Shown here piece by piece: positions 46,584 through 51,401 of a DNA stretch of 51,845 nucleotides. Positions within the stretch are counted from its first letter, which is position 1. The number at the start of each line of letters is the position of its first letter. A program made the position numbers and the translations under genes. Below the pieces are notes generated by a model. It made no database searches, was not told the origin of the DNA, and saw only the letters and a list, made by a program, of their open reading frames with translations. Source of the DNA: Promethearchaeota archaeon (lineage in GTDB: Archaea > Asgardarchaeota > Lokiarchaeia > Sigyniarchaeales > SOKP01); assembly GCA_048938895.1 (NCBI GenBank), contig JBHLLU010000030.1, positions 1-51,845 of the forward strand. The letters are read 5' to 3'.

Positions 46584-47731
46584 AAAAAGCTAAAATAGCA
46601 AAAACAAAAGAAAATAATCATTATATCAAAGGAAGAGGACTTCCTAAAGGATGTGAATATTGTCTTAAAGGTCAAAAGGCGGTTTTATTTTTAAATGGGA
46701 TTTGTCAAAACCCAGTTAATTGCTCTTGGTACTGTCCTATATCAACAGAACGGAAAGGGAATGATTTAACTTATGCAAATGAAATTGAAATTACTAAAGA
46801 AAAAGAATTGCTAGAAGAAATTAATAAGATAGATGCTAGAGGAATGAGTATTACTGGAGGTGAACCTCTATCAAAACAAAATCTGGAGAAAACACTTGAT
46901 TATATTAAATACATAAAAGCTAACAAAGGAAACAAATTTCATATACACCTTTACACCAACGGTATTAATTTCAATGAATCTATTGCGAGTAAACTGGCTT
47001 TGGCAGGATTAGATGAAATCAGATTCCATGCTTCTAGAGAATTTTGGTCAAATATCCATTTAGCCTTGAATAAAGGGATAGAGGTTGGATCAGAAGTTCC
47101 TGTCATTCCAAATAACGAAAATCTTAAAGAGCTTCATGAATTAATCCTATATCTGGATACTATTGGCGTAGATTTCATAAATTTAAATGAATTTGAATAT
47201 TGTTTTTCAAACAGCGAATCATTGAAGAATCGAGGTTTTCAACTGAAAGAAGGAACTATCGCTTCAGTAGTCAATAGCTACGAAGCTGCGATTGAAATAA
47301 TGAAGGATTTAGGGAATAAGGTGTCTCTCAAAATCCATTTCTGTCCTATACGTTCAAAAGATTATTATCAATTAAAAAATAGATACTTAAGAAGAGCAAA
47401 AAATATAAGATTGCCGTTTGAGGTAATTTCAGAGGAGGGCTTGTTACTATTTGCCCAAATCGAAGGGAATGAAGTTAACCTCGAAAAATTGGAAATGGTC
47501 ATGTTAAAAGATATGAAAATTGATCAGCATCTAGTATCATTAGAAGGAAAAACCTTAAAAATGCCGTTATATATCTCAATAAATAAAAGAATTATCTCTT
47601 TAATAGAAAAGTATCAACTTAATGGATATATCATTGAAATGACACCATTCAGAAGACAAAAATATCAGCAAATAACAGAAAAAACCCCACTAAAATTATT
47701 TAAAGAAGAAATCGGTTTAAATGAAGATTAA
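46580..47731 (+). CDS. Radical SAM protein (conserved archaeal family)
   Basis: LPKGCEYC, CQNPVNCSWYC, ITGGEP, HIHLYT, LDEIRFH, NLNE. Confidence 0.9.
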   Translation: MKKAKIAKTKENNHYIKGRGLPKGCEYCLKGQKAVLFLNGICQNPVNCSWYCPISTERKGNDLTYANEIEITKEKELLEEINKIDARGMSITGGEPLSKQNLEKTLDYIKYIKANKGNKFHIHLYTNGINFNESIASKLALAGLDEIRFHASREFWSNIHLALNKGIEVGSEVPVIPNNENLKELHELILYLDTIGVDFINLNEFEYCFSNSESLKNRGFQLKEGTIASVVNSYEAAIEIMKDLGNKVSLKIHFCPIRSKDYYQLKNRYLRRAKNIRLPFEVISEEGLLLFAQIEGNEVNLEKLEMVMLKDMKIDQHLVSLEGKTLKMPLYISINKRIISLIEKYQLNGYIIEMTPFRRQKYQQITEKTPLKLFKEEIGLNED

Positions 47732-48170
47732 AGACGCAAAATTCACAGACTTAAAACATATTATGATCCTCGAAGTTGAATTATTTAGAGAAAATGCATT
47801 TACTAGGCAATTAATGGAAGATTTACTACGCCATAACACTTTTTTCTTAAAATTGGTAAATGATAAGAACGATAATAAGTTAATTGGGTTTATTATTGCT
47901 ATTAGAGATAAAATAGATAGAATCAATATAATTAATTTTCTTATTGACCCAAAATTTCAAAACAAAGGATATGGGGCACTTCTACTAAATGATGTTATCG
48001 AAAGAATAAAAAAAATAGGAGAAATTAAACAGATAGTATTAAATGTTCAAGTAAATAATATTGCCGCCATTAAATTATATGAGAAATTTAACTTTAAAAG
48101 AAATCCTAATGAACTTGTTAATTATTATCCCTCTGGGGAAAACGCGTATTTTATGGAATTAGAAATCTAA
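47721..48170 (+). CDS. RimI/Ard1-like GNAT N-acetyltransferase
   Basis: FQNKGYG acetyl-CoA loop, NIAAIKLYEKFNF, NYYPSGENAYFM. Confidence 0.9.
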   Translation: MKIKDAKFTDLKHIMILEVELFRENAFTRQLMEDLLRHNTFFLKLVNDKNDNKLIGFIIAIRDKIDRINIINFLIDPKFQNKGYGALLLNDVIERIKKIGEIKQIVLNVQVNNIAAIKLYEKFNFKRNPNELVNYYPSGENAYFMELEI

Positions 48171-48269
48171 ATTTTTCTTTACTAAGAATTTATAAATAAA
48201 TTCTATTATAATATGGGTAAATATCAATATTAATTCAGATCAATTTTAAACAAAAGGGGTTGATAATAA

Positions 48270-48425
48270 GTGGCACCTATTGATAAAGACCTACAAGATG
48301 AAATTAAAAAAGGCGTTTCACTCACTAAAGTTGATGAAGCTGATCTTCTCCGAAGGGAAGAAGAAAAGAAAAAACGCATGGAAGAACTAGAAAAAGTAAA
48401 GGCAGCTTTAGGGCAAAAAGATTAA
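48270..48425 (+). CDS. 51-aa small protein with WH2-like motif (absent from ORF track)
   Basis: GTG...TAA ORF MAPIDKDLQDEIKKGVSLTKVDEADLLRREEEKKKRMEELEKVKAALGQKD; SD-like GGGGTTGA upstream, T-rich tract downstream, coding-like composition within an AT-rich spacer. Confidence 0.8.
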   Translation: MAPIDKDLQDEIKKGVSLTKVDEADLLRREEEKKKRMEELEKVKAALGQKD

Positions 48426-48565
48426 ACATTACTAGTTAGTTCTGGTTATTTTTTATCTATTTTTATTTCTTTTATTTTAACTCAATCTCATCTTAATAAA
48501 AATTAAGCTTATCTAAGATTTTACATTATTTGTAATTAGCAATTAATTGGAGATAAGTACTGTAT

Positions 48566-49639
48566 TTGAAAATACTAGAGATTGATAAGAAACTTAGAGA
48601 GATAATTGTAAAGCCCGAGAATCTTAACGATTTATGGACCCTCTATAACATCATAAGCGAGGGAGATGAAGTCTCTGCCCGTACGCAGCGGAGGGTAATT
48701 TTAAAAGAAGGTTCTAAGGGCGAAAGAAAAGTAATGACCTTGAAACTGAAAGTTGAATCAATTTCTTTTCATGAATTTTCAAATCGATTAAGAGTTAAAG
48801 GAAAGATTTTAGAAGGTCCTGCTGATTTTATCAGCTACGGATCTTATCATACTTTTAATATTGAAGCATTACAGAAAATCACCATAATTAAAGAAAAATG
48901 GTCAAATTATGAAATAAAAAGACTCAAGGAAAGTTCAAAATTTGAAAATAACTTCATTATATTAATAGTGGCAATAGAAACAGGATTAGCAACCATTGGT
49001 CTTATAACTAACTTTAGCCATAACAGAATTGCGACTATTAAATCGCACATACCAGGTAAACGATATCCACAAACTCATCGTAATAAGGCACTACTAGAAT
49101 TTTATGATGCTATAGGAAAAATAGTTAAGGAGAATCTAAAGACTCACGATGTAAATGTAATAATTGCTTGCGGTCCCGGGAATACAAAAGACCATTTCAT
49201 TGAACATCTTAGAAAAAATCTAGATGCCGAATATTCCCCAAGAATTGAAAATTGTCACGCAAGCTCAGGAACAGAAAGTGCAATTATTGAAACCTTAAAG
49301 TCTAAAAAATTAGCAAAATTGAAGAAAGATGTGAAAGTTTTGCAGGAAACAGAACTTATTGAAAGTGTGATTTCCCAGTTTGCTCTTGATGCGGATCTCA
49401 TTGTAATAGGATTAGACGAGGTTTCTGATGCCTCTGAGAAGGGAGCAATTAACCAGCTTCTTATAGCTGATACGATGATCAGGGGAACTTCTAAAGATCA
49501 TAAATTAAAAATTGAAGAGATTATAACTAACGTAGAAAATGCTGGAGGCTCAATAGCTATTATGAGTACTGAAAATGTTGCTGGAGAACAATTAGTAGGT
49601 TTAGGGTCAATAGTTGGGATTTTACGTTATAAATTGTAG
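48566..49639 (+). CDS. pelA: mRNA surveillance protein Pelota
   Basis: PENLNDLWTL, FHEFSNRLRVKG, GSYHT, IPGKR, GILRY. Confidence 0.96.
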   Translation: MKILEIDKKLREIIVKPENLNDLWTLYNIISEGDEVSARTQRRVILKEGSKGERKVMTLKLKVESISFHEFSNRLRVKGKILEGPADFISYGSYHTFNIEALQKITIIKEKWSNYEIKRLKESSKFENNFIILIVAIETGLATIGLITNFSHNRIATIKSHIPGKRYPQTHRNKALLEFYDAIGKIVKENLKTHDVNVIIACGPGNTKDHFIEHLRKNLDAEYSPRIENCHASSGTESAIIETLKSKKLAKLKKDVKVLQETELIESVISQFALDADLIVIGLDEVSDASEKGAINQLLIADTMIRGTSKDHKLKIEEIITNVENAGGSIAIMSTENVAGEQLVGLGSIVGILRYKL

Positions 49640-50777: not shown

Positions 50778-51401
50778 ATGAGTCCAATTATAACCCATGA
50801 AGACGAATTAGAACTAGCAAAAATGGAAAAGGAATTAGTTTCCCAACTCAAAAAACTCTCTAGAGCACAAAGTGCCCTTATAAGTTCTCAAATAAAGTAT
50901 GCAGAAAATATTTCTAAAGCAAATGTGACGAGAGATATGCTTAATCGTACCTTTAGAGATGTTTTAAAACAAATGCAAACCCTTGCTCGAGAACATCGCT
51001 CTAACATTAAGGATGAAGAAGTAAAGCTATTTCAAGAAATTATTAAGGAAAATGATGATTACATTAAAGGTAATAATATGTATTTAAATGCAATTAAAGA
51101 TTTGGCAGTGCAAAAAGAATATTTAGTTGCTAAAAAAGATGAATTTGTAGAAGCTTTGTCTGATGTAGCAAATAAACGATCAACTGTAATTAAGAAGGCC
51201 TTAGATGTTGAAAAAGCAAAAAATAAATTAATTGATGGTGATAGGTTAAATATTCTTGATCAAGAATTAAATGATGTACAAAGAGAATTTGATAGAGCTC
51301 GGGATATCTTTCTTAAGAAAGTATATCAATTTAAAGAAGTCAGAGATGAAATCAATGCTCTATGGCTTAAGCTAAAAGAAACTGTTACAGGATTAAGTTA
51401 A
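50778..51401 (+). CDS. All-helical coiled-coil protein, possibly BAR-like
   Basis: 207 aa, almost no Pro/Gly, continuous amphipathic heptads. Confidence 0.75.
   Translation: MSPIITHEDELELAKMEKELVSQLKKLSRAQSALISSQIKYAENISKANVTRDMLNRTFRDVLKQMQTLAREHRSNIKDEEVKLFQEIIKENDDYIKGNNMYLNAIKDLAVQKEYLVAKKDEFVEALSDVANKRSTVIKKALDVEKAKNKLIDGDRLNILDQELNDVQREFDRARDIFLKKVYQFKEVRDEINALWLKLKETVTGLS

Follow-up and report, generated by a model that had tools for sequence, protein, structure and literature searches.

We identified a 51-amino-acid (aa) open reading frame (ORF) in the 51,845-nucleotide stretch of Promethearchaeota DNA analyzed here (the window), and this ORF is a genuine small gene, strongly conserved among Loki-type Asgard archaea. 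Its product, a microprotein, is the free-standing, single-copy form of a module of ~45 residues, which consists of a short amphipathic helix, a G-x-x-L-x-K-V stretch and a long charged helix rich in E, K and R. A tie of the module family to actin is supported by two independent lines: the module is fused to a profilin fold, and a form with ten repeats co-immunoprecipitates with Lokiactin. We put the probability that the microprotein is an actin-binding WH2/thymosin-like peptide at about 0.5.

A conserved small gene upstream of Pelota

The ORF spans positions 48270..48425 of the + strand, from a GTG start to a TAA stop codon. The WH2-like motif noted in a sequence-only reading of this DNA is present, as L8-x3-I12-x2-G15-x2-L18-T-K-V21, and is followed by a charged stretch. 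A coding sequence at this position is supported by the frame itself, its conservation, pN/pS values, start-codon swaps and predicted helices. The upstream neighbor is a RimI-like GNAT N-acetyltransferase gene (47721-48170, + strand; TIGR01575 at 78.3 bits, below the cut-off of 86.4), and the downstream neighbor encodes the ribosome-rescue factor Pelota (48566-49639; TIGR00111, 268.8 bits). A RimI-like GNAT gene also lies directly upstream of the microprotein gene in genomes G030, G034 and G037 and in Candidatus Lokiarchaeum ossiferum. The microprotein starts with M-A-P or M-S-D/E and, speculatively, may be a candidate substrate for N-alpha-acetylation given the RimI-like neighbor. Elsewhere in the window, a 207-aa charged, helix-rich ORF (50778-51401, + strand) matched no NCBIfam family.

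Conservation in relatives, which the sequence-only reading had named as a check, was found both within and beyond the genus. A search with the protein gave matches at E ≤ 10 in 40 of 41 related genomes. Matches at E ≤ 4.2e-12, with open frames of 51-63 aa, occurred in 22 of 24 same-genus genomes, and no such match was detected in the same-genus genomes G006 (90% complete) and G020 (92% complete). Eight genomes from three other families of the order matched at 1.5e-8 to 9.1e-4, again in small frames. A word-index search returned 149 of 150 scored candidates at E ≤ 1; among the matches listed (120), proteins are 44-51 aa long and 68-100% identical. Several of the orthologs are labeled “hypothetical protein” in NCBI MAG records.

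When the family profile was searched against a 301-genome sample of the phylum, 72 genomes matched at E ≤ 1e-3. By family, matches were found in 63 of 68 genomes of the window's own family (f1) and in all seven of family f2; the 225 genomes from the remaining families yielded a single weak match. In this sample the module thus appears almost confined to one order of Lokiarchaeia. Such confinement counts against an actin role, because the other sampled Asgard families are all expected to have actin. The sole match outside f1 and f2 is a 258-aa protein of Asgard family f11 (L121:949-1722, + strand; G272:C1), in which a WH2-looking stretch, LKASILSGVSLKKVDEE, stands by itself and the charged helix is absent.

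Alignment of 18 same-genus loci revealed one shared start position, occupied by ATG in five loci, GTG in ten and TTG in three. Pooled pN/pS was 0.151 in the coding frame versus 1.03 and 1.99 when the same strand is read in its two alternative frames, and the variable columns at the first, second and third codon positions numbered 19, 10 and 42 of 49.

The same 18 loci share the signals that flank the gene. A promoter-like block at 48185..48220 (+ strand), whose role we infer, has most columns at ≥80% identity and the consensus AAAACTTATAAATAA.TTCTATTATA.T.T.TGTAA. Inside it is a TATA-like core, TTTATAAATA (48189-48198, + strand), ~72-81 nt upstream of the start codon. The Shine-Dalgarno-like sequence AAAGGGGTT (48253..48261, + strand) lies 9-17 nt before the GTG; its consensus AAAGG.GTT is kept across the alignment, with AAAGGTGTT in the majority of loci. 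Downstream of the stop codon, a T-rich tract at ~48447..48479 (+ strand), conserved as TTTTTATC-TTTTTTATTTATTTTATTTT in the 18 aligned downstream regions, resembles an archaeal terminator and probably acts as one. The TATA-like, Shine-Dalgarno-like and T-rich elements are all conserved, whereas the spacer around them is variable. The earlier description of an Asgard small gene with these three elements is borne out, and the conserved promoter-like and terminator-like signals are the gene's own.

One alternative is that the ORF is a chance open frame in AT-rich intergenic DNA and not a gene. It is short, it starts with GTG, and the bare motif is within chance expectation: a loose WH2 pattern matched 9 of the 29,726 six-frame stretches of the source genome versus 10-23 (mean 15.2) in 20 residue shuffles. 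The motif by itself is thus not statistically remarkable genome-wide. The degree to which the ORF is conserved, and the motif along with it among family members, greatly exceeds chance. We rejected the chance reading, and consider its probability negligible, given the low pN/pS in the coding frame alone, the dominance of third-position variation, the start-codon swaps at one position, the retention of the ORF in families f1 and f2, and ortholog peptides detected by mass spectrometry.

These peptides come from L. ossiferum, in which a profile search found one single-module ORF (L073:1453-1662), directly after a GNAT gene. Based on gene order and three masses (calculated 8.24, 23.48 and 24.82 kDa; listed 8.24, 23.47 and 24.81 kDa, PMC13716822), we assign it to GNAMCCOK_02436/UYP46132.1. 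A candidate ortholog position beside Pelota (GNAMCCOK_02288) was rejected; GNAMCCOK_02436 adjoins another GNAT gene. The L. ossiferum single-module ortholog is expressed as protein: it has proteome rank 519, with values in 15 of 15 measurements, and is represented in the Lokiactin co-immunoprecipitation (co-IP) by five peptides covering 43.5% of its length (PMC13716822). Proteomics, another check proposed from the sequence, thus shows translation of the ortholog; for the window protein itself it is predicted.

The place between a RimI-like GNAT gene and Pelota could also suggest a translation-linked small protein, for example a ribosome-associated one like TMA7. The order GNAT - microprotein - Pelota - radical SAM is common to the window and three family f2 genomes, and the charged half of the microprotein has a likeness to eukaryotic TMA7. 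However, Pelota is not a neighbor in L. ossiferum or in family f4, the microprotein gene has its own conserved promoter-like block, and the Pfam TMA7 model (PF09072) had no match in the source genome at E ≤ 10. Moreover, tandem and profilin-fused forms would make no sense for a ribosome-bound peptide. We consider a role of this kind highly improbable.

Likeness of the module to WH2 and beta-thymosin

AlphaFold2, provided with a 24-sequence alignment, predicted a helix at residues 6-14, a loop at 15-22 (G-V-S-L-T-K-V-D) and a second helix at 23-49, with a mean pLDDT of 82.8 and a pTM of 0.39. The latter value implies that the 51-aa protein has no compact fold. A Foldseek search of the model against the PDB returned no hits, and no NCBIfam family matched the microprotein.

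Among 52 diverse single-module members, the consensus is DELKxEIxxGxxLxKVDxxELKxREEEKKKRxEELxKxKxAL. In detail, L18 and E39 are invariant, and G15, E32, K33, K35, R36 and L40 are conserved in at least 90% of members. The window protein has both halves of the module, including G15, L18 and the stretch E32-K-x-K-R-x-x-E-L40. It matched the family profile (A1) at E = 1.9e-27, the protein itself being part of that alignment, and a profile built from the ten-repeat proteins alone at E = 1.3e-12.

Both halves of the module are constrained, the charged helix more so than the WH2-like half. The WH2/beta-thymosin-like layout recognized in the sequence-only reading is conserved across the family, but the best-conserved half is the charged helix. 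The strong conservation of E32, K33, K35, R36, E39 and L40 favors the chief rival to the actin-binding reading, namely a charged-helix module (a single helix or coiled coil) of general use in interaction or spacing, which makes no direct contact with actin and whose WH2 look is convergent or due to chance. In that case the small protein would serve as an adaptor, as a chaperone-like helper or as regulator of a different partner. The near-invariant G15 and the invariant L18 in the WH2-like half argue against this explanation, which we regard as somewhat unlikely while giving it serious weight.

In its layout the module shares several features with WH2 (PF02205; N-WASP, WAVE, MIM, Spire). A short amphipathic helix leads through a short linker to an LKKV/LKKT-like motif, here G-x-x-L-x-K-V with the N-WASP spacing (a pattern that alone is within chance per genome); the microprotein has a predicted helix and then an extended stretch; and the module is found as a single copy, in arrays of tandem repeats and alongside profilin-related functions. 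Unlike WH2, the window protein keeps only one of the two leading hydrophobic residues (L8, followed by Q9). The first basic position of LKKV varies in the family, with T in the window protein, and the module continues with an invariant acidic residue and then a long, conserved helix of charged residues. Actin binding, established for WH2, is predicted for the module.

Beta-thymosin and ciboulot (PF01290) share with the module a length of ~45-50 aa and an arrangement of N- and C-terminal helices joined by an LKKT-like linker; in the 51-aa microprotein these parts correspond to the helix at 6-14, the motif at 18-21 and the helix at 23-49. In both cases free peptides and tandem repeats exist. The C-terminal helix of the module is, however, much longer and is E/K/R-rich, and some of its relatives have ten repeats, whereas ciboulot and tetrathymosin have 3-4.

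The Pfam models do not recognize the window protein. The WH2 search, likewise proposed as a check, gave no match to this protein at E ≤ 10, and the model missed it also when run over the whole source genome, so that the gathering cut-off of 23.1 bits was not reached. Five of the 52 diverse members matched the WH2 model at E ≤ 1, and P0150 alone passed the cut-off (23.7 vs. 23.1 bits). No thymosin match was detected in a Pfam scan of the window protein or the 52 members; in the source genome the thymosin model found nothing at the gene and two matches of 11-13 bits elsewhere. The size and layout likeness to actin-monomer-binding peptides proposed from the sequence holds, but the Pfam WH2 and thymosin models miss the protein. 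The absence of a WH2 match for the window protein and the chance-level frequency of the bare motif are consistent with a general charged-helix element. We conclude that the family is borderline for the WH2 model: its motif is WH2-like, but membership in the WH2 family is not demonstrable.

Weak matches to other Pfam models are more common than those to WH2 among the 52 members: 12 matched DUF3006 and seven matched Histone_HNS_N, the latter with a best E of 1.3e-4. The Histone_HNS_N matches raise the possibility of a nucleic-acid-associated or oligomerizing coiled-coil peptide similar to the H-NS N-terminus, possibly acting with fused RHH domains, and in LRR and GTPase fusions an RHH-like (DUF6290/NikA-like) domain indeed follows the module immediately. 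Against this, all of the matches fall below the Pfam cut-offs, the small protein by itself lacks a DNA-binding domain, and the profilin fusions and the actin co-IP would be left unexplained. We consider this alternative improbable.

For the single protein, phmmer ranked an N-WASP WH2 construct third of six PDB hits (E = 0.72). The family profile, searched against 177,635 PDB sequences, had 11 hits at E ≤ 10, four of which are WH2 peptides: the N-WASP tandem WH2 construct 3m3n_W as top hit (E = 1.6e-5), 2vcp_D of N-WASP (0.024), 3mn7_S of Spire (0.047) and 2d1k_C of MIM (0.13). The other hits are a designed TIM barrel (two sequences), M protein, EF-1beta, Alba, flagellin and AfTrax (two sequences). 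The significant totals are sums over repeats (three stretches in 3m3n_W), and single WH2 stretches have individual E-values of 3-49. HMMER aligned residues 8-23 of the window protein to the N-WASP WH2 repeats (LLDQIRQGIQLKKVEQ). The presence of these WH2 peptides among the PDB hits is a further point against a charged-helix element without actin contact.

Searched against 1.84 billion representative sequences, the family profile had 70 hits at E ≤ 1e-3. These include P0184 (E = 9.6e-5), a genuine Pfam-WH2 protein with six WH2 repeats (80.8 bits). Aligning the 52-member alignment to the six WH2 repeats of P0184 with hhalign gave a score of 21.6 (P = 2.8e-5), and none of 200 column shuffles reached this value (mean 6.8, maximum 11.2); this comparison is biased toward success, as P0184 was picked by the family profile itself. 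In the ESM Atlas, the nearest named cluster carries thymosin (score 0.87), which we treat as a lead only. Another protein, P0169 (762 aa), is a eukaryote-like FHA + PP1-binding + SAP protein with seven EIKAGxSLRQV-type repeats, which match profile positions 8-23 and are sub-threshold for Pfam WH2 (E = 0.0021).

The strongest version of the actin-binding reading would be that the module is a true homolog of the eukaryotic WH2/beta-thymosin motif and forms a third class of Asgard actin regulators besides profilin and gelsolin, with the free protein as monomer holder and the ten-repeat form as nucleator or stabilizer. We consider both this combination and WH2 homology as such rather unlikely; a motif of 20 residues is too short to settle the latter.

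Tandem and fused forms, and co-immunoprecipitation with Lokiactin

Of the 70 profile hits, 55 have at most 100 aa and the other 15 are longer. Five of the longer hits are proteins of ~480 aa or pieces thereof. Each of five full-length ~480-aa proteins contains ten repeats with a period of ~45 residues, many of which start with LLxEIxxGxxLxK[IV]D. Among the relatives sampled, ten-repeat ORFs were found in family f2 only. A word-index search with a ten-repeat protein returned nothing but itself, and a word-index search for longer, fused forms scored none; the fusions surfaced in the exhaustive profile search.

Head-to-tail motif arrays are also found in the tandem-WH2 actin nucleators Spire, Cordon-bleu and VopL/VopF. 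The module arrays share this arrangement, and a ten-repeat relative co-purifies with actin; they differ in having ten repeats, a 45-residue period and helical spacers. The ten-repeat protein may be considered a candidate nucleator.

In L. ossiferum B35, the ten-repeat ORF (L069:5992-7458) encodes 488 aa with a calculated mass of 56.45 kDa. On one side it is flanked by a thermosome gene and then a PLP-homeostasis gene, and on the other side a serine hydroxymethyltransferase gene lies four genes away. These neighbors correspond to GNAMCCOK_04087, 04086 and 04081 (supplementary file 13, PMC13716822). Given the gene order and mass, we infer that the ORF is GNAMCCOK_04085/UYP47766.1 (listed mass 56.41 kDa). 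In the Lokiactin co-IP, this protein was detected with 44 peptides, 70.5% coverage and 366 spectra (Radler et al., 2026; PMC13716822). Its log2(actin/IgG) of 4.53 (P = 4.5e-5, adjusted P = 2.1e-3; PMC13716822, supplementary file 13) is similar to the value of 4.44 for Lokiactin itself in the same table, and its proteome rank is 301 (PMC13716822). Three proteins rank above both in the CoIP sheet, GNAMCCOK_00333 (log2 of 9.18), 02751 (7.72) and 04250 (5.11), the last with 91.7% coverage and 207 spectra (PMC13716822).

Radler et al. name profilin, gelsolins, an Arf GTPase and BAR proteins (Nature 2026, PMC13716822), and GNAMCCOK_04085 is not mentioned in the parts of the text searched. In 12 of its 14 supplementary files, UYP47766.1 occurs in data tables only, “WH2” refers to gelsolins only and “thymosin” is absent (PMC13716822).

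Enrichment of the ten-repeat form as strong as that of actin, with 366 spectra, argues against a module that makes no contact with actin. On the other hand, the cells used for co-IP were fixed with formaldehyde (PMC13716822), so the association may be indirect. If the module is a general charged-helix element, the ten-repeat form could have come down with actin because of cross-linking, charge or a partner common to both, for instance profilin.

The single-module ortholog GNAMCCOK_02436 was not significantly enriched in this co-IP (log2 of 0.57, P = 0.042, adjusted P = 0.105; PMC13716822). Of all the results, this one speaks most clearly against the free form being strongly associated with actin, and it fits the charged-helix explanation. 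The WH2-like half of this ortholog is degraded, with no G and with M-K-H-V instead of L-x-K-V, and an experiment of this type could miss a protein that binds monomers weakly.

The second line of evidence for the actin-binding reading is fusion to profilin-like domains. The module follows such a domain in P0152, P0166 (with four modules) and P0185, and inspection of 12 loci revealed the same fusion in three family f1 genomes (L110, L113 and L119). The Pfam Profilin model is sub-threshold on these fusions (E = 2.5e-4 and 1.5e-3). However, an AlphaFold2 model of P0185 had a pLDDT of ~90 over residues 1-125, the profilin-like domain. At E ≤ 1e-3, a Foldseek search with this domain gave 48 hits, almost exclusively profilins, the best being OdinProfilin/actin (5zza_P; E = 1.5e-9, TM 0.83), LokiProfilin2 and LokiProfilin1. 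By this structural model, the fused domain is an Asgard profilin fold. Its recurrence beside the module in several genomes is difficult to reconcile with a general charged helix, whereas two other observations favor such a helix: the module has low confidence within the P0185 model (pLDDT 45-60), and the remaining fusion partners are diverse and not actin-specific (LRR, small GTPase, RHH-like and RING).

In the source genome, 2 of the 29,726 six-frame stretches carry the module, the microprotein and an LRR-module-RHH ORF (G000:C53:38422-39786, - strand); the profile search of these stretches detected no ten-repeat protein and no profilin-module fusion. The latter ORF, also represented by L109:1023-1883, combines LRR, module, an RHH-like (DUF6290/NikA-like) domain and a second half-module, and P0180 and P0187 are its relatives. 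Other architectures include small GTPase + module + RHH-like (L112:989-1939, - strand; L115:927-1982, - strand; L116:663-1733, + strand) and a coiled-coil protein with one module at its end (L114, L117 and L118).

Possible mode of action, and the actins and profilins of the host group

If the actin-binding reading is correct, the microprotein would bind archaeal actin in the way that WH2/beta-thymosin peptides bind eukaryotic actin. The first amphipathic helix, of three turns with I4, L8 and I12, would sit in the cleft separating actin's subdomains 1 and 3, and the LxKV stretch would extend upward along the surface of actin. Further actin contacts, or a rigid spacer, would be the contribution of the charged helix. 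A single module might act as a holder or buffer of monomers, or it might compete for this cleft with profilin and gelsolin, and the ten-repeat relatives might bind several protomers at once and thus stabilize or nucleate filaments.

The actin of the source genome aligns over its full length with eukaryotic actins at ~500 bits, and Asgard profilins and gelsolins have, according to the literature searched, been crystallized on rabbit actin. Given these two observations, a conserved barbed-end cleft is plausible.

Profilins and gelsolins are the only characterized Asgard actin regulators in the literature searched. In that literature the sole WH2-like Asgard elements are LKKT-type motifs in the linkers of Asgard two-domain gelsolins, seen on actin in crystals (Akil et al., 2020, 2022; PMC7444086, PMC9433394). 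These are four residues long (LRRV, LKHV, LVDV/LKDV), belong to a gelsolin fold instead of forming free-standing modules of helix plus motif, and are unrelated in sequence to the module described here. Among the papers on WH2, thymosin and Lokiactin searched, none describes a free-standing Asgard WH2 or thymosin-like protein. A free-standing WH2/thymosin-like peptide would thus add a missing class to the pre-eukaryotic actin toolkit, with a candidate nucleator on offer because a tandem relative co-purifies with Lokiactin. An actin role is directly testable, as 51 residues can be synthesized and cultured Lokiarchaea, a Lokiactin antibody and actin assays exist. Should binding fail, the family would be an unexplained, very strongly conserved, order-specific module.

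The complete actin of the source genome is a paralog (C99) that is 78-81% identical to the genus-wide Lokiactin; the genome's own copy of canonical Lokiactin ends at a contig end (G000:C58:8890-9795, L030) with a 301-aa open frame. The paralog, a second actin gene (L029:1495-2697, - strand, and L080:709-1959, - strand; G000:C99), adjoins a 417-aa ORF whose N-domain is profilin-like and whose middle part resembles a winged helix, and the same pair occurs in G007, G008, G022 and G024. In addition, profilin-like proteins of ~211 aa (L107:565-1194, + strand, G000:C39, and ~20 relatives) have a low-complexity linker and a conserved C-terminal tail, DPQLKGEIQSFLDWIKD... Profilin-like paralogs number 1-6 per genome, with at least one in 41 of 41 genomes.
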